Assembly (NCBI RefSeq): GCF_000619845.1
Contig: NZ_KK211037.1
Location: 60,001-92,000, forward strand
DNA length: 32,000 nt
Direction: 5' to 3'
From: Alkanindiges illinoisensis DSM 15370
GTDB taxonomy: Bacteria > Pseudomonadota > Gammaproteobacteria > Pseudomonadales > Moraxellaceae
Below, piece after piece: positions 8,768 through 21,105 of the stretch. The translations under genes and the position numbers were made by a program. Numbering within the stretch: position 1 is the stretch's first letter; every line of letters begins with the position of its first letter. The notes beneath the pieces were generated by a model, which was given only the letters and a program-made list of their open reading frames with translations, had not been told where the DNA came from and ran no database searches.

Positions 8768-9139
8768 ATGGCAGCGCGACCAGCATTTTCACAGCAGCAG
8801 TGGGTAGGGATCAATTATGGCCTGATGTTACTGTCGCTACTTTTAGGGGTTGGCGTACTGATTGCGCTATGGAGCAGTCATCACTTTTTAAACCAGAGTC
8901 AGGATGTCTGGTTGCGCTCCCATCATTTGTGGATCATGCGCAGTTGTGTGGGCCTACTGGGTTTATTGCTCATCAATAGCCTGTTTTTTATTCCCTTGTT
9001 TTGGCTGCCCGTGACGCAGGGCATTGGCTATTATTGTTGGCTGGCTGGGGTAGGGTTTGCTGCCTTAATCTGGCTATGGTTTTTGTATCGTAGCGTTAAA
9101 GGATTACAGGCATTTATAAAAGCTAAATCGGTGTATTGA
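8768..9139 (+). CDS. Small integral membrane protein, function unknown
   Basis: 123 aa with 3-4 hydrophobic segments. A GGAAAAGGAA purine tract lies upstream of the ATG. I do not recognise the family. Confidence 0.55.
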   Translation: MAARPAFSQQQWVGINYGLMLLSLLLGVGVLIALWSSHHFLNQSQDVWLRSHHLWIMRSCVGLLGLLLINSLFFIPLFWLPVTQGIGYYCWLAGVGFAALIWLWFLYRSVKGLQAFIKAKSVY

Positions 9140-9250
9140 TGGTGGAGCAAAGATGGGATTGAAATTTCAGTAAAATATTTGGATTTAGTTTGTACCACTG
9201 AATATTATAACTCCAATAAACTAATTCTTAAGAGTTTTTAGGGAAGTGTA

Positions 9251-9967
9251 ATGAGTATAGAAAAATTTCAATTTCCATCACGAGGTTTTCACATAGTTGC
9301 GACGAAAGTTGGTGAAGCAGATTACTTTCTTGAAAAATTAAAAGAGGTACAAGGTCATTACGATGAATTTTCTTATATTTTGAGCGCTTTTGTTTCAGCC
9401 TCAAGAAGTATCACTTTTGCACTTCAATCTGTTATGACTAAATATCCTGAATTTGATGAGTGGTATATCACTCATCAAGAAAAACTCAAAGCCAATGGCC
9501 TTGCAAAGTATTTTGTAAGCCTTCGTAATTATATGCAAAAGGTTGGTCAAGTCCCAGTGGGTCATACTGGAACAATAAGAAATGGTAAGATTGAATATTT
9601 TTCCTTTTTTATAGATATAGATGACTTAAAAAATGCCCCAAATGGAGAGGTGATCAATCTAGCTGAAGATTATTTTGTTGAAGTTTTGAGAGTTGTCGAA
9701 AGTTGCTATAGGGATTTTTGGGTATATACTGATCCACGTGCGATCTTTACTGAGGACGGCCTAAAATTGCTTGGCTGGGTTATAGAGGATATTGAGGAGG
9801 CCGTTGGCCTCCCTAGAGGATATACTGATATTCCTTATGATAATGAAGACAAGAATTTACAAAGATTACGGCTTTTGGCTCGTGAGTTTCAAGGTGACGA
9901 GATGATGGAGCAGTACTTTATGAAATATGAATTACAGTTGAATCTTAATAAAAATTATAATTCCTAA
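9251..9967 (+). CDS. Hypothetical cytoplasmic protein (orphan) in an AT-rich islet
   Basis: 238-aa uninterrupted ORF with an AGGGAAG Shine-Dalgarno 5 nt upstream. Local GC is about 33-36% by eye, against about 50% in the flanking DNA. It has no signal peptide, no TM segment and no motif I recognise. Confidence 0.6.
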   Translation: MSIEKFQFPSRGFHIVATKVGEADYFLEKLKEVQGHYDEFSYILSAFVSASRSITFALQSVMTKYPEFDEWYITHQEKLKANGLAKYFVSLRNYMQKVGQVPVGHTGTIRNGKIEYFSFFIDIDDLKNAPNGEVINLAEDYFVEVLRVVESCYRDFWVYTDPRAIFTEDGLKLLGWVIEDIEEAVGLPRGYTDIPYDNEDKNLQRLRLLAREFQGDEMMEQYFMKYELQLNLNKNYNS

Positions 9968-10043
9968 TTTAAATATACTTATATGTTTGTTGGTAAATAT
10001 GATGACAAGCTATCTAAAATTTGGGAGTAGTTAAGAAACCAGT

Positions 10044-12892: not shown

Positions 12893-12946
12893 CCAAGCCA
12901 TGAAGCGATAGTCCTTATCGCGATTATTGTGACGTGTATAAATGCG

Positions 12947-12975
12947 AAAAGCCCATCTTACTAGATGGGCTTTTT
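12947..12975 (+). terminator. Rho-independent terminator of dnaJ
   Basis: Stem GCCCATCT (12951-12958), loop TACT, stem AGATGGGC (12963-12970), followed by TTTTT and preceded by AAAA. Confidence 0.75.
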
Positions 12976-13089
12976 GATATGTGGTCGGTTCAGGCAACAA
13001 ATAACCTGAGCATGACTAATCTGGGGGCAGATTGAATCGTCAGACAATAAAAATTATGATAGGCCAAATAAAATTGATTTTATAAGAAT

Positions 13090-14193
13090 ATGTCACCACA
13101 CATTCGCCTGAACATGATTGTCAAAAATGAAGCTGCGGTGATCCTGCGCTGTCTTGCTTCGGTCAAGCCGTGGATTAATTCCTGGGTTATTGTCGATACG
13201 GGTTCCAGTGATGGCACACAGGACATGATTCGGCAGTATATGCAGGATCTGCCGGGACAATTGTTTGAACGTTCCTGGAAAAATTTTGGCCATAACCGCA
13301 GCGAAGCCCTAGAACTGGCGCTCACTGATGAGTTGCCCCCTGCGGATTATTTATTGTTTATTGATGCAGACGAAACCCTGCTGGTGGCTGAGCAGTTTCG
13401 CTATCCTGAACTGGACGGCACAGCTTACTATTTTGAATGCCTGTACGATCACATATGCTATCAGCGCAATGCGCTGGTTTCTACGCGGCTGCCTTGGCGC
13501 TGGAAAGGAGTATTGCACGAATATCTGGATTCGCCCATGCCGCATCAGTGGCAAACGCTGGAAGGGCTCCGTATTTTTGTACAGCACGACAGCGCCCGTG
13601 GCAAGGACGCAACCACTTACCTTAAAGATATTGCCTTGCTACAGCAGGGAATTCAGGATGAGCCGGACAATTTGCGCTACCAGTTTTATCTGGCACAAAG
13701 CTATCAGGATGCGGGGATGCTGGACGCGGCCTTGCAGGCTTATCAGCAGCGTGCCAGTGCCGCTGGCTGGGAAGAGGAACGCTGGATGGCCCAGTTTCGT
13801 GCGGCCCAGTTAACCGAGCGCTTAAACTATCCCATTGAACAAGTGTATCTGGCTTATTTGCAGGCATGGATCAGTCGGCAGCAACGTGCTGAGCCTTTGT
13901 ATGAACTGGCACGTTTTTATCGTGAACGGCAATTGTATGACACTGCCTGCTATTTTGCTCAGCAAGCGGTTAATATTACCCAGCCGGATGACCTGTTATT
14001 TGTCGACCATAGCGTGTATGCATGGCGGGCACTTGATGAACTCAGTGTATCGGCCACCTACTGCGCGCCTTATAAGCAAGCAGGCCAAGTTGCCATGTCA
14101 CAACTCATTCAGCAACAAAAATTTCCTCCTAGTGAAAAAGCGAGAATTGAAGCCAATAGGATGTTCTATGATTTGGACGCGCATCTGGTTTAA
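13090..14193 (+). CDS. Family-2 glycosyltransferase with a C-terminal helical-repeat (TPR-like) domain
   Basis: The N-terminal GT-A fold signature is LNMIVKNEAAVILRCLASVKPWINSWVIVDTGSSDGT...FGHNRSEALELA...LLFIDADE (DxD motif). The C-terminal half is a helical repeat (YQFYLAQSYQDAGMLDAALQAYQQR...LYELARFYRERQLYDTACYFAQQA). Confidence 0.8.
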   Translation: MSPHIRLNMIVKNEAAVILRCLASVKPWINSWVIVDTGSSDGTQDMIRQYMQDLPGQLFERSWKNFGHNRSEALELALTDELPPADYLLFIDADETLLVAEQFRYPELDGTAYYFECLYDHICYQRNALVSTRLPWRWKGVLHEYLDSPMPHQWQTLEGLRIFVQHDSARGKDATTYLKDIALLQQGIQDEPDNLRYQFYLAQSYQDAGMLDAALQAYQQRASAAGWEEERWMAQFRAAQLTERLNYPIEQVYLAYLQAWISRQQRAEPLYELARFYRERQLYDTACYFAQQAVNITQPDDLLFVDHSVYAWRALDELSVSATYCAPYKQAGQVAMSQLIQQQKFPPSEKARIEANRMFYDLDAHLV

Positions 14194-14229
14194 GTTGAAT
14201 GATTAATAGAATAGAGAATGATCCCAATA

Positions 14230-14258
14230 AACAACCTGATTTTTAACATCAGGCTGTT
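14230..14258. terminator. Hairpin between the convergent glycosyltransferase and tail-collar genes (possible bidirectional terminator)
   Basis: AACAACCTGAT / loop TTTTAAC / ATCAGGCTGTT gives an 11-bp stem with one mismatch. There are T-rich runs on both strands. Confidence 0.55.
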
Positions 14259-14278
14259 TGCATGGATGAGGCAGTAGA

Positions 14279-14875
14279 TTAAGGACGTGATGGATAGATA
14301 CCATTAATACAAATAATATAATTGAGTGCCAGATAGGGATTGCTGGCATCAAACGGCTGACTGCCGCCCACAATGCCTGTTGTACCTGAATTTAACTGCG
14401 CCGCAATATTGGCTTGTATCGGTTTCATGTTGGCAAGCTGGGTGGTATCTGGCGTGTAGCTATTTAAGGTATTGATGCCATCATTAACATTGGCCCATAC
14501 CGCATTCGTGGGATCAGTGGTTGTACCGTTGCCCGAGCTACCTTGCGGCTGTATGGTGGCAGTCGCGGTAACTTGCTGTGCATCCAGTGAATGCGCGTGA
14601 GCAGGCAAATTGGCAAGCGTTAAACTAATATTTCGGCTACCGCCCTGACCACCCAGGGGAAACTGATTGTTGTCAACACCCACAATGGCGCGGCCATTTA
14701 AGTTGGGCAGGGCAAAGGTGGTTTGTCCATTGCCCCCATAAGTGGTGCCTAACAGTGAAAACAACGCGGTATATTGTGAAATGGAGAGGAGTTGTCCGTT
14801 GCATGACATCCATCCCTGTGGGGCGAAGTCAAAGGCCACCACGCTGATTTCTCCAACAAATGATTCCAGAGCCAT
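14279..14875 (-). CDS. Phage tail collar domain protein (MdpB / 'microcystin-dependent protein' family)
   Basis: 198 aa. FVGEISVVAFDFAPQGWMSCNGQLLSISQYTALFSLLGTTYGGNGQTTFALPNLNGR plus the C-terminal NPYLALNYIICINGIYPSR are the canonical conserved blocks of this family. There is no signal peptide. Confidence 0.9.
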   Translation of the reverse strand: MALESFVGEISVVAFDFAPQGWMSCNGQLLSISQYTALFSLLGTTYGGNGQTTFALPNLNGRAIVGVDNNQFPLGGQGGSRNISLTLANLPAHAHSLDAQQVTATATIQPQGSSGNGTTTDPTNAVWANVNDGINTLNSYTPDTTQLANMKPIQANIAAQLNSGTTGIVGGSQPFDASNPYLALNYIICINGIYPSRP

Positions 14876-14945
14876 ATTATTTTTCCCTAATAGATTTGAT
14901 TAAAATTAGAGTGGTATTTTGATCCACAGTCGAATTAAAGCGATT

Positions 14946-15287
14946 CTAGACAGGGTCGGCTATACCTAAAACATCGTATTTTTTGTGCAGTAGATTGAGC
15001 TTTTTATGAATGGTTTTGCGATGACTGTACACGGTTGCAATGCTGATATTCAATTGAAAGGCAATCTGTTGACTCCCTTGTCCTTCAGTCATCAGCAGCA
15101 CAATGCTTTTTTCACGTTCGGTTAAACTGGCCAAAAATTCAGGGTAGTATGAGGCGTATTTCAGCAGGCAGGCTTTATGGTGGATATTGAGCTTTTTATA
15201 AATATTTTCTTGATGGGTAGTGACAGTTCGTTCGCTGATATATAGTTTTTCGGCAATTTGTTTGATTAAAAAACCATCAGCGCGCAT
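14946..15287 (-). CDS. Small protein made of two tandem LuxR/GerE-type HTH domains. The first domain is N-terminally incomplete as annotated.
   Basis: Domain 2 is complete: LTEREKSIVLLMTEGQGSQQIAFQLNISIATVYSHRKTIHKKLNL. Domain 1 (ADGFLIKQIAEKLYISERTVTTHQENIYKKLNI) lacks its first helix. The gene is AT-rich, about 38% GC by eye. Confidence 0.75.
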   Translation of the reverse strand: MRADGFLIKQIAEKLYISERTVTTHQENIYKKLNIHHKACLLKYASYYPEFLASLTEREKSIVLLMTEGQGSQQIAFQLNISIATVYSHRKTIHKKLNLLHKKYDVLGIADPV

Positions 15288-15336
15288 TTAAAAAAATTTT
15301 TCGCTCACGTCGGGTTAACGTTGCTAGTATTGTCAT
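15277..15336 (-). pseudogene. 19-codon fragment encoding the missing first helix of LuxR HTH domain 1, out of frame with the CDS at 14946-15287
   Basis: Minus-strand ATG at 15336 gives MTILATLTRRERKIFLNAR*. LTRRERKIFL is the canonical start of a GerE domain (compare LTEREKSIVLL in domain 2). Removing one A from the minus-strand AAATG (plus-strand TTT at 15287-15289) fuses the two frames to LTRRERKIFLMRADGFLIKQIAEKL, which aligns without gaps to domain 2. Confidence 0.55.
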
Positions 15337-15356
15337 GGCATTGTTCTCAACCTGAT

Positions 15357-15387
15357 CAGTCCGCAGGCTGTAAAAGCCGGCGGACTG
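15357..15387 (-). terminator. GC-rich hairpin between the collagen-like gene and the HTH gene
   Basis: CAGTCCGCAGGC / loop TGTAAAA / GCCGGCGGACTG gives a 12-bp stem with one mismatch. No U-tract follows on the minus strand, so it may be a partial terminator or an RNA-stabilising element rather than a full terminator. Confidence 0.45.
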
Positions 15388-15419
15388 AGGCTTAACGGAT
15401 GAATTAAACCGGCTGATCC

Positions 15420-18080
15420 TTATTTGATGCGGGTGATGGACAGATGGGTCGTGCCGTTGGTTGAGGTAAAGGCCGCAGTTGTGTTACTCCATGACTGTGC
15501 TCTGAAACGCACGGTATTACCGTTGTCCAGATACATCATACAGTTAATCTTGGTGCTATTTCTGAGGCCTGCATTTGCGCCATTGGTATATTGATCATAG
15601 GTGCTAATACAGATCGGCGTACCGGCCTGATTAACATCCAGATAATGCGCAATGCCGATAATGGTTTCTCCGCCGGTATTGGTAACACCCATCACTTGCG
15701 TAGAAAACTGATACCAGCCTGCACCTGTACCACCTACGGTAAAGGTCGTGCCATTCCAGCTATTGCCACCAGTCAGACTGGCGCGGATGTTATTTGAGCC
15801 ACTAAAAAACAAGGTATCAAAATTTGCTGTGCCACTTAAGCTGCTGATCTGCTGACTGCTGTTGTTGGCAATGTTCAACTCTACATTGGGATAAGCACTA
15901 ACGGCACTGCTGATGTTAACGCCGCTGCCCCAGCTCCCATTGGATTTGGTATAGATCAAGCCGGAACCCGTCTGGATATAAAGGTCACCATTACTACCGG
16001 TAGCGTTGGATGGTGCCGTTGATCCCGAAAATACGACTGTGCCACTGTTACCAGTTGCCCCGGTGGCGCCCGTTACACCTGTTGCGCCTGTAGCTCCGGT
16101 AACGCCTTGCGCACCTGTGGCTCCGGTTGCACCAGTAACACCTTGAGAACCTGTAGCGCCAGTTGCACCCGTTGCGCCGGTAACACCTTGTGCGCCCGTA
16201 GCTCCAGTTGCCCCTGTCAGCGCAATAGAAATAGACCAGCCTGCTGCAGACTTTGGTCCATACAGTCGGGCATTGGTGGTGTCAATATAAAAATCACCCA
16301 CCGCGCCAACAGCCAGTGAAGGGGCGCCACTGCCATTTAAGATAGTATTACCATTGCTGCCAGCCGCCCCAGTGGCACCTGTAACACCTTGCGCCCCTGT
16401 AGCTCCGGTAACACCTTGTGCACCCGTTGCCCCTGTGATACCGCTAGCACCTTGCGCACCGGTAGCACCCGTAATGCCTGTGGCTCCGGTAGCACCCGTT
16501 GCACCATTAGCGCCAGCTGCGCCTTGTAAAGATACCCCTATGCTTGGCCAGCCTGTAACAGTTTTTGGCCCATAAAAGACTGAATTCACAGTATCGATAT
16601 AAAAATCACCAACATTGCCCTGAGTGGTGGGTGCTCCGTTACCATTGAGAATAATATTACCATTGCTGCCGGCCAACCCGGTTGCCCCAGTGGCTCCCGT
16701 TGCACCCGTAACGCCTTGAGCACCCGTTGTCCCTGTCGCCCCAGTTATGCCAGTGGCTCCAGTTGCACCTTGTGACCCTGTGGCACCTGCCGCCCCTTGA
16801 GAACCTACCAGTGAAATGCCAAGGCTTGGCCATACCCCATTGGCTTTAGGGCCATAAAAACGGCTGGTTGTGGTATCAATATAAAAATCACCATCCAGTC
16901 CCAGAGTTGCGGCTGGAGCGCCTGAGCCATTAAGTACGGCATTACCACGCATACCCTGCTGGCCTGTAGCACCCGTCGCCCCTGTGGCGCCCGGTTGACC
17001 AGTTGCTCCGGTTGCACCCACCAGAGAAGTTGATGCGCCCCAGCCGTTGATGGTCTTGGCGGCATATAGTCGTCCGTTACTTATATCAATATAGGTATCG
17101 CCAACATTACCAAGGGTTGAGGAAGGTGCGCCTGACCCGCTAATGATAGAAAACCCTATAATACCTTGCTGGCCTGTTGCCCCGGTGGCGCCCGTTACAC
17201 CCGTTGCGCCTGTCACTCCGGTTGCCCCTTGCGCACCTGTAGCTCCCGTTGCACCGGTAACGCCTTGAGAACCTGTAGCGCCTTGTGCGCCCGTGGCACC
17301 AGTCGCACCGGTAATGCCTTGAGAACCCGTTGCTCCTGTAGCTCCAGTTACACCGATTGCCCCAGTCGCACCCGTAACGCCTTGTGCGCCAGTGGCTCCG
17401 GTTACGCCTTGCGCACCAGTTGCACCCGTAATACCTGTGGCTCCGGTTGCACCAGTTACACCCTGTGCACCGGTTGCGCCAGTCGTACCGTTGGCGCCAG
17501 TTGCCCCAGCCGCGCCGCTAGCGCCTTGTTGGCCTGTAGCACCCGTTGCTCCTGTAGCGCCTTGTGCACCGGTAGCACCCGTTGCCCCTGTAGCACCGTG
17601 CTGGCCTGTGGCGCCTGCCGGGCCAATCAGTGAAATACCCGTATTTGGCCAACCTGCTGCTGTTTTTGGGCCATAAAGGACTACATTACTCACATCAATA
17701 TAAAAATCGCCAGGCTTTCCAGCAGTTGCCAGCGGTGCGCCAGAACCATTGATTACACTATAGCCATCGCTGCCATTCAGGCCAGCTGTTCCCACCAGTG
17801 AAACCCCTATGGCAGGCCAGGTACGATTCTTTTTAGGGCCATATAAAACATAGGCATTGGTATCAATATAAAAGCTACCGTCTATACCATTTTGTGCAGT
17901 AGGCATGCCTGCCCCGCTGCTGACTGAGTTAACGAGCGTAGTGGTTACAATCGTTTCTGTGGTTTTATCCGATCCGCCACATGCTGACAATGCCAGCATT
18001 GTGCCCAGAATGACGACACTTAGAGTGTTTTTTTGCAGTTTTTTAGAGGATGTATACATCGCGGGATGGATCATATTCAT
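15420..18080 (-). CDS. Collagen-like triple-helix-repeat lipoprotein with seven interspersed 'YID' modules and a C1q/BclA-like C-terminal globular domain
   Basis: 886 aa with a GGAAG Shine-Dalgarno before the ATG. The lipoprotein signal is MLALSAC, with Cys34. By hand count there are six G-X-Y runs totalling about 115-120 triplets, dominated by GAT, GAQ and GVT. Seven copies of G[DS]xYI[DQ]-x5-[LF]Y-x-[PA]K-x4-W separate the runs. The last ~155 aa ([18 protein letters not shown]...[16 protein letters not shown]...HLSITRIK) show the pattern of a C1q/TNF-like jelly roll. Confidence 0.9.
16041..17624 (-). repeat. Coding tandem repeats with 9-nt periodicity (G-X-Y triplets) in five blocks. The largest block is about 17157-17624.
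   Basis: GGY-GCN-ACN type units repeat with many near-identical 9-, 18- and 27-nt copies. The same periodicity creates long spurious ORFs on the opposite strand. Confidence 0.9.
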
Positions 18081-18146
18081 TTTTTACTTCCAGCGTTATT
18101 TTTTAAAAATTTTAGCTATTTATTTAATACGAGGGATTCATAATTG

Positions 18147-18162
18147 TATACAGTTCTGTATA
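18147..18162. promoter_or_regulatory. 7-2-7 dyad TATACAG-TT-CTGTATA in the AT-rich region upstream of the collagen-like gene
   Basis: Perfect 7-bp inverted arms with a 2-bp spacer, about 70 nt upstream of the ATG at 18080. The dyad lies in a 275-bp AT-rich intergenic region shared with divergent dapB. Confidence 0.35.
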
Positions 18163-18355
18163 TATAGTTACATATTTTTATATTTTGCATTACTGCTGTT
18201 ACATTATTTGCTACAGTTCAGGCAATCGGCACCCGATAGAATAAGCAGTTATTGCGTAACCTGCTACGTTAAGCACATTGCAGGGTAAAAGGGTCTGATA
18301 GTCAGTGGACTGGCTTGGTTTTGGATTAATTAACGCTAAATATTGAGGAGCAGGC

Positions 18356-19223: not shown

Positions 19224-19922
19224 ATGAACAACACCGTCAACCGGTTCTCTGCGCGCAAGCTGTGTTATGCCATTGGCTTAAGCCTGCTAACCTTAAGTAC
19301 CGCCCATGCTGCTGCTGATCTGTCACGCGCCAAGCTGGCGATCAATAAACAGGGCATCAAGGTGTGGACGTATCAGCTACCGGATAATCCCGCCTTTAAT
19401 TACCGTGCCACCACGGTACTCAATAGCAGTGTTACCAGTGTGGCTGCAGTGATTCTGGACACCGATGATCTGGTTCAGTGGGTGCCGTATGTCAGTGCTG
19501 TGAATGTGATTGAGCGTAATGATGCCACTGGCAGCTTTATCATTCGCATGCAACTGGATTTTCCGTTTCCCTTGCAGGATCGTGATGTGGTTATTCAGGG
19601 CAAAATCAGTCAGGCCAGCGACGGCACTGTGACCATTAAAAACAGGGCAGTTAGCGATAGCCGGGTTCCGGTACGCCATAATGTGGTACGCCTAACCCAC
19701 TATGAAGGCGACTGGACCCTGAAGCCACTGGGGCCTGCCAAAACAGAAGTGTCCACCACAGGTTATGGTGATCCGGGTGGCGTGATTCCGCTGACCGTAG
19801 CCAATATGTTTGTGCAGCAGCAGCCGTACCAGATGCTGGGCCGCATGAAGGACTATGTAAAAAACAGCCGTTACCAGAATGCACAGCTCAGTATGATTAA
19901 AGACCCGTACGCCAAAAAATAA
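19224..19922 (+). CDS. Secreted START/Bet v1-like (SRPBCC) lipid-binding-domain protein
   Basis: Signal peptide (LSLLTLSTAHAAA). Overall START-like pattern (KVWTYQ...FNYRATTVLNSSVTSVAAVILDTDDLVQWVPYV...RDVVIQGK...GDWTLKPLGPAKTEV). Assigned by pattern recognition only. Confidence 0.65.
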   Translation: MNNTVNRFSARKLCYAIGLSLLTLSTAHAAADLSRAKLAINKQGIKVWTYQLPDNPAFNYRATTVLNSSVTSVAAVILDTDDLVQWVPYVSAVNVIERNDATGSFIIRMQLDFPFPLQDRDVVIQGKISQASDGTVTIKNRAVSDSRVPVRHNVVRLTHYEGDWTLKPLGPAKTEVSTTGYGDPGGVIPLTVANMFVQQQPYQMLGRMKDYVKNSRYQNAQLSMIKDPYAKK

Positions 19923-19968: not shown

Positions 19969-21105
19969 TTGAGAGAAATTTTCAGGCCCATAATGCGTTG
20001 TCTTATGGTGCAGGCAGGCATTCCCTTGAAAAAACTTAATCCTTACTGGTCTGGCATTATCGCCAGCGTGTTTTTCAGCTTGCCTATGCCAGTACAGGCC
20101 AATACAGCCTTCAATACCGTGGCAACAGAAACCCAAAATACCATTATTGCCAAGCCGACTGTGGTCAATGGAACAACGGCCAGCAGTACACAAATGCCGT
20201 GGCAGGTTGCCCTGTTTGCGCAAAACGCTAGTGGACAGGCTGCCTATATTTGTTCCGGTACCCTGATTAATGCGCAGTGGGTAGTCACAGCTGCGCATTG
20301 CTTTAATCCGCAGAAGCTTGAGCAGCAGCCGATTACCGATCATTACGTGGTGGCAGGGACAGTAGACCTTGATCAGATTAACAGCCCGGCCACTCAGGTA
20401 ATTCGGGTAAGTCGCCAGATTATTCATCCCGGTTATGACGCCGGGGTTAATCTGGACAATGACATTGCCCTGCTCAAGCTGTCAGAACCCGTTGATTTAA
20501 AGGCCTGTGGTCTGCGTTGTGACACAATTGACTGGTTAAAGCCCGCACAGGCCAGTCAGTATACGGCGCTGGGCAGCTTGGCTCAGGTGGCAGGCTGGGG
20601 TGAGACTGTGGTAACAGCCAGTAATGGCACACAGGAAACCCTGTATCCCTCGCGCTTACAGGTGGGGCAGCTTAAGATTGTCAACTGTGGTAGCAGTCGC
20701 TACCTTTACAATAACAAGAGCTGGCCAATCAGTGCCAATATGATGTGCGCCAGCGGGGTAGACCAGCAAAATCCTGCTGATACCTGCGTGGGTGACAGTG
20801 GCTCAGGCTTGGTGGTGAATATCCGTTCAGGTCAGCCTTTGCTGACGGGTATTACCAGCTGGGGTGAAGACACGCCTTGCGGTGAGCGCACCTTGCCCGG
20901 CGTGTATACCCGGGTTGCCAATTATGCCAGCTGGATTTTAAGTTATGTTGATCCGCTAGCGTATCAGCAGCAACAGGAACAGCAGCAGGCGCAACAGTCA
21001 GCCAGTACCTCAGGTTCAGGCGGCGGTGGCAGTGTTTCGGTGGGAATGTTGCTGGGCTTGGGTAGCTTAGTGTTGATTCGGCGCAAATGGCTTGCCAGAA
21101 AATAA
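19969..21105 (+). CDS. Trypsin-like (S1) serine protease with a GlyGly-CTERM sorting tail (VesB-like)
   Basis: The catalytic triad contexts are WVVTAAHC, NDIALLKL and CVGDSGSGLV. The C-terminus, SGSGGGGSVSVGMLLGLGSLVLIRRKWLARK, is a Gly-rich motif followed by a TM helix and a basic tail. The TTG start is doubtful, and the ATGs at 19993 or 20005 are more likely. The signal peptide ends ...LPMPVQA. Confidence 0.9.
   Translation: MREIFRPIMRCLMVQAGIPLKKLNPYWSGIIASVFFSLPMPVQANTAFNTVATETQNTIIAKPTVVNGTTASSTQMPWQVALFAQNASGQAAYICSGTLINAQWVVTAAHCFNPQKLEQQPITDHYVVAGTVDLDQINSPATQVIRVSRQIIHPGYDAGVNLDNDIALLKLSEPVDLKACGLRCDTIDWLKPAQASQYTALGSLAQVAGWGETVVTASNGTQETLYPSRLQVGQLKIVNCGSSRYLYNNKSWPISANMMCASGVDQQNPADTCVGDSGSGLVVNIRSGQPLLTGITSWGEDTPCGERTLPGVYTRVANYASWILSYVDPLAYQQQQEQQQAQQSASTSGSGGGGSVSVGMLLGLGSLVLIRRKWLARK

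Follow-up and report, generated by a model that had tools for sequence, protein, structure and literature searches.

In C. difficile, the 358-aa enzyme SgtA, which combines a GT-A domain with four TPRs and is encoded immediately upstream of bclA3, adds beta-O-GlcNAc to Thr residues of the BclA3 collagen repeats (PMC7157674). BclA of B. anthracis (PDB 3tyj) likewise carries a collagen stalk with Thr, glycosylated in BclA, at the Y position of its Gly-X-Y triplets, and the stalk is followed by a C1q/TNF-like trimeric jelly-roll head of the type also found in BxpB and ExsFA. Here, we describe a 32,000-nucleotide stretch of the genome of Alkanindiges illinoisensis DSM 15370 (hereafter the window), in which a minus-strand gene at 15420..18080 encodes a collagen-like lipoprotein precursor with seven copies of a module of about 48 aa, named the YID module after one of its motifs, and lies in a cassette that also contains a gene for a GT-A glycosyltransferase with TPRs (GT2-TPR). 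The overall kind of this system, a collagen-like stalk with a C1q-like head and an adjacent Thr glycosyltransferase, is known from BclA and BclA3/SgtA, whereas its Gram-negative lipoprotein form appears to be new. We consider it reasonably probable that the product is a lipid-anchored homotrimeric surface fibril, probably an adhesin, with a C1q-like head and Thr residues that are O-glycosylated by GT2-TPR.

The likeness to BclA3/SgtA lies in a G-X-Thr collagen-like gene adjoining a gene for a GT-A plus TPR enzyme of about 360 aa (358 aa in SgtA, 367 aa in the window), the two enzymes being likened by architecture and size. As with that pair, a GT-A plus TPR gene adjoins the fibre operon both in the window and in Alkanindiges hydrocarboniclasticus H1, and the same arrangement is seen again in metagenomes and in five or more other genomic contexts. 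In contrast to BclA3, the window protein comes from a Gram-negative organism, has a lipoprotein signal instead of being assembled in a mother cell, is built from G-A-T, G-V-T and G-A-Q rather than G-P-T triplets and contains the seven YID modules within the rod. It differs from BclA in having a lipobox and not an exosporium-targeting N-terminus, in its nearly Pro-free triplets, in the modules within the stalk and in a head that matches no Pfam or NCBIfam model. An assignment as a BclA-type exosporium glycoprotein was rejected, because the N-terminus is a lipoprotein signal peptide and the nearest genome is that of Alkanindiges, a member of the Moraxellaceae and not a spore-forming Firmicute. 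Phage fibres such as SAMYPH_28 of Streptomyces phage Samy and the E. coli prophage protein EPclA, an experimentally trimeric dumbbell (PMC3368898), also combine collagen spacers with a C-terminal receptor-binding head, and have the YID module in common with the window protein. Unlike them, however, the window fibre is chromosomal and outside a prophage, carries a lipoprotein anchor and a GT2-TPR partner, and is far lower in Pro and charge. Bucl8 of Burkholderia pseudomallei, another Gram-negative envelope protein, likewise has a collagen-like repeat free of Pro and charge. A trimeric domain anchors this protein, and circular dichroism (CD) shows that it forms a marginally stable triple helix (PMC7682875). 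In contrast to the window fibre, it is an outer-membrane efflux channel with Ser at the Y position and lacks modules, a C1q-like head and a reported glycosyltransferase partner.

Anatomy of the collagen-like fibre

The open reading frame (ORF) has an ATG start and its 886-aa product consists of a lipobox, seven YID modules, six Gly-X-Y runs and a C-terminal domain of about 158 aa. The features are listed below, with the evidence in brackets; block confidence values are predicted local distance difference test (pLDDT) scores from AlphaFold2 (AF2).

15420..18080, minus strand: whole fibre gene, 886 aa, stop codon at 15420-15422 (ORF list and translation)
17979..18080, minus strand: signal peptide and lipobox L-S-A-C with the predicted lipidated Cys34, aa 1-34 (read from sequence)
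17781..17927, minus strand: YID module 1, aa 52-100 (hmmsearch i-Evalue 1.2e-24; alignment; AF2 block pLDDT 91-96)
Between YID modules 1 and 2, minus strand: collagen run 1, a 4-triplet G-X-Y stretch (regular expression)
17613..17759, minus strand: YID module 2, aa 108-156 (hmmsearch, alignment, AF2)
17148..17624, minus strand: collagen run 2, 53 uninterrupted triplets, aa 153-311 (regular expression; Pfam Collagen)
17007..17150, minus strand: YID module 3, aa 311-358 (hmmsearch, alignment)
16938..17018, minus strand: collagen run 3, 9 triplets, aa 355-381 (regular expression)
16794..16940, minus strand: YID module 4, aa 381-429 (hmmsearch, alignment)
16653..16805, minus strand: collagen run 4, 17 triplets, aa 426-476 (regular expression)
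16512..16655, minus strand: YID module 5, aa 476-523 (hmmsearch, alignment)
16344..16523, minus strand: collagen run 5, 20 triplets, aa 520-579 (regular expression)
16203..16346, minus strand: YID module 6, aa 579-626 (hmmsearch, alignment)
16035..16214, minus strand: collagen run 6, 20 triplets, aa 623-682 (regular expression; best Pfam Collagen stretch 623-680)
15897..16037, minus strand: YID module 7, divergent, leading into the head, aa 682-728 (i-Evalue 5.7e-19; 30% identical to the reference module)
15423..15896, minus strand: C-terminal head, aa 729-886, predicted C1q/TNF-like jelly roll (AF2 pLDDT 78.4, ten beta strands)

The N-terminus combines a basic stretch (KKLQK...) with a hydrophobic core and L-S-A-C, and agrees with the pattern of bacterial lipoproteins, [LVI][ASTVI][GAS]C after a positive n-region and a hydrophobic h-region, as judged by eye. 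A sequence-only reading of the window had placed the lipobox at Cys34 and counted seven modules; the lipobox is found there, and a profile recovers all seven modules with domain E values of 1e-19 to 1e-26. The orthologue in H1, which also belongs to the Moraxellaceae, has 895 aa, is 64.8% identical and carries the same seven modules; its signal sequence is LIIGTMAVLSGC, with L-S-G-C as the lipobox. An identical fibre protein is present on two assemblies in the sequence collection, one of them a 24.9-kb Logan contig from run SRR3313971. No further modules or collagen runs occur in the rest of the window, and a scan of it for promoter and terminator consensus sequences gave no more sites than shuffled sequences. 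Two plus-strand ORFs opposite the collagen runs (17166-17633 and 17392-17676), with Cys/Arg/Ser-rich and Pro/Val/Ala-rich products, arise as antisense artefacts from the G-X-Y repeat and do not merit annotation.

The six collagen runs comprise 4, 53, 9, 17, 20 and 20 triplets, 123 in sum, which at the standard rise of 0.286 nm per residue would correspond to about 105 nm. Earlier hand counts of 3, 52, 8, 16, 19 and 19 hold to within one triplet each, the boundary triplets that run into the modules having been omitted. Over the 123 triplets, the X position is occupied mainly by Ala (76), Val (14), Ser (8) and Ile (6), and the Y position by Thr (77), Gln (20) and Ala (8). The predominance of Thr and Gln at Y and the presence of only two Pro, one His and one Arg had been noted correctly, whereas the claim that acidic residues are absent fails on a single Asp in the short first run (GSD). 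The Pfam Collagen model (PF01391) matches eight stretches with 170.1 bits against a cut-off of 27.2 bits. Matches to the NCBIfam models of the named adhesins Lcl, Scl1 and Scl2 stayed far below their cut-offs (140.8 versus 500, 129.2 versus 325 and 120.6 versus 400 bits, respectively) and covered the G-X-Y runs only, so that these assignments were rejected. Gly periodicity is unbroken in every run, including the longest of 53 triplets. At the DNA level, repeats match only to 65-85% according to Tandem Repeats Finder, and as many as 27 distinct 9-mers underlie the 55 G-A-T triplets, with all four codons in use for Gly, Ala and Thr. This excludes a recent slippage array or variable-number tandem repeat and indicates that the repeat is old and kept at the protein level. 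The H1 orthologue has 126 triplets with three Pro, one Arg and one Asp, in runs of 4/52/4/16/36/14. Hence, the unbroken Gly spacing, the composition and module number kept in the orthologue and the diversified codons together argue for a packing constraint typical of a triple helix and not for a disordered linker.

Thr is the commonest Y residue of bacterial collagen-like proteins (31.6%), and Pro occupies only 19% of their X positions (PMC8968730). For T-G-A and T-G-P triplets, an anomalously high frequency has been reported in bacteria, archaea and viruses (PMC11923368), and (GAS)19 of Bucl8, which is Pro-free and uncharged, gives a triple-helical CD signal when made, unglycosylated, in E. 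coli (PMC7682875). The sequence-only reading therefore overstated its case in presenting a charge-free G-A-T collagen as exceptional. Nevertheless, the composition of the window fibre is still at the extreme among module-bearing relatives: among those with enough triplets, none of 98 module-family representatives and none of 56 viral relatives has both less than 3% Pro and less than 3% charged residues. A literature search on Gly-Ala-Thr collagen returned nothing relevant. In model peptides, glycosyl-Thr can bring about triple-helix formation; Ac-(Gly-Pro-Thr)10 requires galactosylated Thr to fold. In the cuticle collagen of vent worms, glycosyl-Thr predominates (summarised in PMC11923368).

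In the alignment of the seven modules, G5, P9, G14, G17, Y20, I21, Y29, K32 and W37 are invariant, and module 7 is the most divergent copy. Each module is predicted, with a block pLDDT of 91-96, to be a compact beta unit, with strands formed by an N-terminal I-L-x segment, F-Y-I-D, L-Y and an S-L segment. No model in Pfam (local copy and a newer precomputed annotation including PF26xxx-PF27xxx) or NCBIfam covers the module, two module profiles gave only chance-level matches to PDB sequences (designed propeller blades and teneurin YD repeats), and a Foldseek search of the module model against the PDB gave no significant match; the earlier description of the module as unassigned stands in this respect. 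Weak matches of the isolated module or head to DnaJ_C, PT26-6P and DUF models were rejected as chance matches to a short hairpin motif. PTL_trimer (PF26696), the region that precedes the same head in Bacteroidota, was rejected as a relative of the module as well (hhalign probability 0.5%, 8 aligned columns), and literature searches for the module motif strings and for 'PTL_trimer' found nothing relevant. Among the structural neighbours of the module model, the only collagen-associated fold is that of the collagen XV/XVIII (multiplexin) trimerisation domains (3n3f and 3hon; target-normalised TM score 0.55-0.62, root-mean-square deviation 2.8-4.0 Å, E 2.8-4.2, probability 0.2-0.4), which is a lead and not evidence. 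Both are small beta-rich domains adjoining a collagen helix, the multiplexin domain with about 55 aa; in contrast to it, the YID module is a tandem repeat and not a single C-terminal nucleation domain, and the match, at an E value of about 3, is not significant and is accompanied by no sequence similarity.

The module is not confined to the window protein. Searched against 1.84 billion representative proteins, the seven-copy profile finds 10,240 proteins at E<=1e-3, 4,020 at E<=1e-10 and 519 at E<=1e-30, with up to 33 copies per protein and source labels such as 'tail fiber domain-containing', 'collagen-like', 'beta strand repeat-containing' and 'hypothetical'. At least ten G-X-Y triplets are present in 124 of the 150 best module proteins. 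For 1,125 modules in 152 proteins, inter-module linkers are short (<=8 aa) in 444 cases, collagen in 361 and of other kinds in 168. To judge from these linkers, in which collagen is often lacking, the YID module is a fibre repeat of general use, about 48 aa long and arranged in tandem, with collagen as an optional spacer growing from its G-x-x-G junctions. Phages have it too: it is found in the tail fibres of Streptomyces phage Samy and Burkholderia phage vB_BgluM-SURPRISE13, in a minor tail protein of Sinorhizobium phage Phosso, in a hypothetical protein of Burkholderia phage BCSR5 and, as detected from 8-mers of a single copy, in 133 stretches of IMG/VR viral contigs. In a search for modules in the proteins beside glycosyltransferase genes, the default composition-bias filter of HMMER hid a genuine 65-bit module match in a G/A/T-rich protein, and true matches were recovered with --max. 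Domain searches inside collagen-like proteins thus need --max or --nobias, and automated annotation probably under-reports the module, since the filter hides it in collagen-like proteins.

The C-terminal domain had been read as C1q/TNF-like, which holds for the predicted fold and fails for the sequence family. An AF2 model built on head relatives (pLDDT 78.4, predicted TM score 0.78) is an all-beta jelly roll of ten strands, and a Foldseek search against the PDB gave 184 matches at E<=1e-3. The probability is 1.0 for TNF ligands, C1q-like domains, BclA, BxpB and ExsFA, and target-normalised TM scores reach 0.75 against C1QL, EDA, 4-1BBL and BclA. The leading matches include 4-1BBL, EDA, C1QL/C1q-like domains, BclA (3tyj), BxpB (8d02), ExsFA (7r5i) and a short tail-fibre domain of cyanophage A-1(L) (8ke9). 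Among the viral models of BFVD, phage and giant-virus 'collagen + C1q' proteins match with probability 1.0 and query-normalised TM scores up to 0.74. By sequence, neither the isolated domain nor the whole protein matches Pfam C1q (PF00386) or TNF at E<=10, and there is no match in NCBIfam or among PDB sequences; another module-bearing protein (P0145) does match PF00386. The sequence relatives of the head are nine proteins (P0121-P0129), mostly of Bacteroidota type with PTL_trimer before the head, and the head family is also present at eleven genomic loci (L002-L012). At a Spirosoma locus (L013 2114-4870), three tandem genes encode proteins with an N-terminal PTL_trimer, the third of which bears the head family of the window protein, indicating that the head is swapped between stalk types.

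The GT2-TPR enzyme and the gene cassette

Three further genes accompany the fibre gene:

14946..15287, minus strand: LuxR-type protein, 113 aa, with two GerE helix-turn-helix units, 3' of the fibre gene (Pfam GerE, 2 stretches; 66% in H1)
14279..14875, minus strand: phage-tail-collar (PF07484) protein, 198 aa, without a signal peptide (Pfam Collar 8.7e-28; PDB 8kec, a long tail fibre, 6.9e-7; 72% in H1)
13090..14193, plus strand: GT2 (GT-A) plus TPR glycosyltransferase, 367 aa, convergent with the fibre operon (Pfam Glycos_transf_2 and TPR; 75.5% in H1)

The GT-A fold of GT2-TPR begins at about residue 7 and the protein has no signal peptide; the early start of the fold points to a cytoplasmic enzyme. 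Its nearest PDB sequences are GmaR (6.5e-7) and SunS (7.4e-7), which are the Listeria flagellin O-GlcNAc transferase and a peptide S-glycosyltransferase, respectively, and its best NCBIfam match is the SunS family (4.4e-7, far below the family cut-off). At E<=1e-10, 6,425 of the scored candidates belong to the GT2-TPR family. Sampling covered eight genomic contexts from sources other than Alkanindiges; three were uninformative or only partly visible, and in the other five a (G-X-T)n protein directly adjoins the glycosyltransferase gene. The neighbour is a secreted 400-aa protein with 50 triplets and 82% Thr at Y in Acidovorax, a 361-aa protein with 36 triplets in Delftia, a 487-aa lipoprotein with 63 triplets and zero charged residues in Cupriavidus, a 692-aa protein that has 110 triplets plus a single YID module and follows two Collar genes at locus L021, and a giant adhesin with 107 (GGT/GET) triplets and 100% Thr at Y in Acinetobacter ihumii. 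The last case suggests that the enzyme family may also serve non-canonical G-x-T repeats. In Acinetobacter-type genomes (L020 336-5900, L019 1-5908 and L015 1-5900), GT2-TPR genes lie directly downstream of giant RTX/type I secretion system (T1SS)-like adhesins of 1,854 to more than 2,400 aa. In Acidovorax and Delftia (L016 3966-7077 and L017 4038-7110), an IPTL-CTERM sorting-signal protein, a (GAT)n collagen-like protein and GT2-TPR are encoded in this conserved order downstream of an ABC/FtsX (MacB-like) pair.

A scan of metagenomes yielded 80 further glycosyltransferase loci, 63 of them with a usable flank. A collagen-like ORF, defined by at least 12 triplets, is present in 19 of the 63, five such neighbours carrying YID modules, and collagen-like ORFs reach a density of 2.02 per 10 kb at distances of up to 600 bp from the glycosyltransferase gene compared with 0.13-0.28 further out, an enrichment of about tenfold. 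As only 19 of the 63 loci have a collagen-like neighbour, the wider family must also have other or unrecognised substrates. The collagen-like proteins that adjoin the glycosyltransferase (n=22) have a median of 64% Thr at Y and 1.0% charged residues, as against 18% and 13% in module-family representatives (n=98) and 48% and 7.2% in viral module proteins (n=56). These differences in Thr and charge give Mann-Whitney p values of 2e-5 to 9e-10, which are optimistic in that the compared sequences are not phylogenetically independent; for Pro content there is no difference (p=0.26). GT2-TPR was found in none of 80 viral loci. The pattern is consistent: the enzyme accompanies G-X-Y repeats that are rich in Thr and free of charge, irrespective of the head, module or secretion signal of the protein. 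Threonine glycosylation of the fibre by GT2-TPR, suggested earlier from the neighbouring gene, is thus a well-supported inference, with strong comparative backing from adjacency across genera, enrichment and composition. Searches of the accessible literature found no description of a pairing of GT2-TPR with charge-free (G-X-T)n proteins.

The gene order fibre, LuxR, Collar and convergent GT2-TPR is the same in both Alkanindiges genomes. The cassette is flanked by dnaJ and dapB in the window (12893-18355) and by aceF, a gene of the SMR family and guaB in H1 (L002 5820-10864); being kept intact between differing flanks, the four genes behave as a unit. No integrase gene, insertion sequence element or tRNA gene is visible at either site. 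The 113-aa LuxR-type protein has neither a receiver nor a ligand-binding domain. Loci L021, L022 and L031 likewise have Collar genes or a Collar-type head next to GT2-TPR. Free-standing PF07484 Collar proteins adjoin a GT2-TPR or head-domain gene in the window (14279-14875, minus strand), at L021 2506-3728 and at L005 5207-5419, and at L031 (4814-6991) a module-bearing collagen-like protein has a fused Collar-type domain for its C-terminal head and ends 7 bp before the glycosyltransferase gene. Because Collar is the head domain of this related fibre, the free-standing Collar protein may be an alternative or accessory fibre tip. Beyond dapB, the window encodes a START/polyketide-cyclase-like protein (19224-19922, plus strand) and a trypsin-family serine protease (19969-21105, plus strand). 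Elsewhere in the window, a low-GC islet of two small genes (8768-9967, plus strand; GC 0.353 in 9001-10000) lies beside an RND efflux operon and may be a small foreign insertion; the product of 9251-9967 is assigned to PF26900 (Phage_lambda_Ea47) in the precomputed annotation and has no match in the local Pfam copy.

Proposed assembly and alternative explanations

The analysis shows how the sequence is built, which folds are predicted, how large the families are and which genes are associated as neighbours; trimer formation, glycosylation with a stabilising effect, surface exposure and a function as an adhesin we infer. GT2-TPR would most likely O-glycosylate the Y-position Thr residues in the cytoplasm, on the unfolded chain and before export by Sec. 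Cytoplasmic glycosylation of exported adhesins has precedents in HMW1C/HMW1 and the autotransporter heptosyltransferases. After cleavage by signal peptidase II and acylation of Cys34, the chains would form a rod in which small beta YID domains alternate with triple-helical spacers made almost only of G-A-T, G-V-T and G-A-Q, and the C1q/TNF-like trimeric head at its end would be the likely ligand-binding tip. Glycosyl-Thr would take over the hydrating and stabilising role of proline or charge pairs and would cover the rod with a sugar coat, whereas head and modules would keep the three chains in register, so that weak helix segments free of imino acids would be clamped at both ends. Since modules stand at both ends of every helix segment, three of them might pack round the fibre axis as a registration knot. 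More tentatively, we propose for the Proteobacteria a widespread, hitherto undescribed system in which dedicated cytoplasmic GT2-TPR enzymes O-glycosylate the Y-position Thr of charge-free (G-X-T)n fibres ahead of their export and glycosyl-Thr is the general bacterial replacement for hydroxyproline or salt bridges, with the YID module as a new trimer-forming fibre domain exchanged by bacteria and phages and C1q-like and Collar heads swapped on the same stalk; this generalisation we regard as possible, though hardly as probable.

Several points weigh against the proposed fibril. For a lipoprotein with Gly at position +2, the expected location is the inner leaflet of the outer membrane, and no surface route is evident for a lipoprotein rod of more than 100 nm. 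The AF2 model of the module was made as a monomer, GT2-TPR resembles GmaR and SunS only weakly, with about 32 bits and mainly over the generic GT-A core, and the window glycosyltransferase gene, being convergent with the fibre operon, is not co-transcribed with it. Furthermore, folding does not have to depend on glycosylation, given the triple helix of unglycosylated (GAS)19 from Bucl8 (PMC7682875).

Three other explanations were weighed against this fibril. If the G-A-T runs were not triple helices, they could form a flexible, heavily O-glycosylated mucin-like spacer, comparable to the serine-rich repeat adhesins, that holds the folded modules and the head at a distance from the cell in a chain that is perhaps monomeric. 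This would agree with the low intrinsic helix stability predicted from the near lack of Pro and charge pairs and with the confident prediction of the module as an autonomous fold in a monomer; the glycosyltransferase association fits a mucin-like coat equally well, and the Acinetobacter partners carry (GGTGET)n in giant T1SS-type adhesins, GGX triplets being considered unfavourable for triple helices (PMC11923368). A disordered linker, however, needs no Gly at every third position, and this spacing is kept without a break over 123 triplets in the window protein and 126 in the orthologue despite changed run lengths. Moreover, the C1q/TNF fold family is obligately trimeric, and the head is placed where collagen nucleation domains sit. 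With (GAS)19 making a helix without Pro or charge (PMC7682875), we consider such a spacer unlikely. Just as unlikely, in our view, is that GT2-TPR has nothing to do with the fibre and builds a surface polysaccharide or modifies a different protein, leaving an unglycosylated fibre stabilised by its flanking trimeric domains. GT2 is a huge and mostly polysaccharide-building family, 44 of the 63 metagenomic loci have no collagen-like neighbour, and both the convergent gene orientation and the folding of unmodified (GAS)n (PMC7682875) would be accommodated. Against this stand the recurrence of the adjacency across six or more genera, with the genes in several orders (co-oriented upstream, divergent or convergent), the enrichment within 600 bp, the fact that the adjacent proteins have Thr at Y and a lack of charge in common and not a head or module, and nearest solved relatives that glycosylate proteins or peptides.

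That the gene is a tail-fibre gene of a phage or tailocin, or what remains of such a gene, with a virion or contractile particle as its context and the Collar protein as a second fibre component, seems to us more improbable again. The best PHROG matches of the fibre protein are tail-fibre families, the module is shared with the Streptomyces, Burkholderia and Sinorhizobium phages and the IMG/VR stretches, there is a resemblance between the head and the short tail-fibre domain of cyanophage A-1(L) and between the Collar protein and the long tail fibre 8kec, and the cassette lies at different loci in the two genomes. However, the lipoprotein signal peptide is kept in both orthologues, the partner proteins of other genera bear Sec or lipoprotein signals, and the GT2-TPR partner is missing from all 80 viral loci. 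The 32-kb window contains no capsid, tail, baseplate, terminase or integrase genes and the cassette is flanked by dnaJ and dapB; a prophage context for the fibre gene was therefore rejected.

Significance for bacterial collagens

Two further points appear to be new: the recognition of the YID module as a huge, uncurated and structurally unsolved fibre repeat that phages share and, from the gene neighbourhoods compared, a conserved pairing of GT2-TPR with charge-free (G-X-T)n proteins across Proteobacteria. With more than 10,000 representative proteins and neither a curated model nor a solved structure, the module is worthwhile for structure work and for the annotation of phage receptor-binding proteins. 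An open question is how the collagens of bacteria reach and keep their folded state in the absence of hydroxyproline, and according to a recent survey it is not known whether Thr is glycosylated while the chain is still unfolded or once the helix has formed (PMC11923368). An enzyme without a signal peptide and an exported lipoprotein as its candidate substrate imply that glycosylation would take place on the unfolded chain, if GT2-TPR acts on the fibre, and the locus offers a compact, testable candidate pair of enzyme and substrate for the folding question. As designable biomaterials, collagen rods that lack Pro, can be glycosylated and have registration domains built in are of interest as well. 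In Alkanindiges, Acinetobacter, Comamonadaceae, Cupriavidus and metagenomes alike, GT2-TPR is associated with collagen-like proteins rich in Thr and free of charge, which points to a general rule and not a curiosity.

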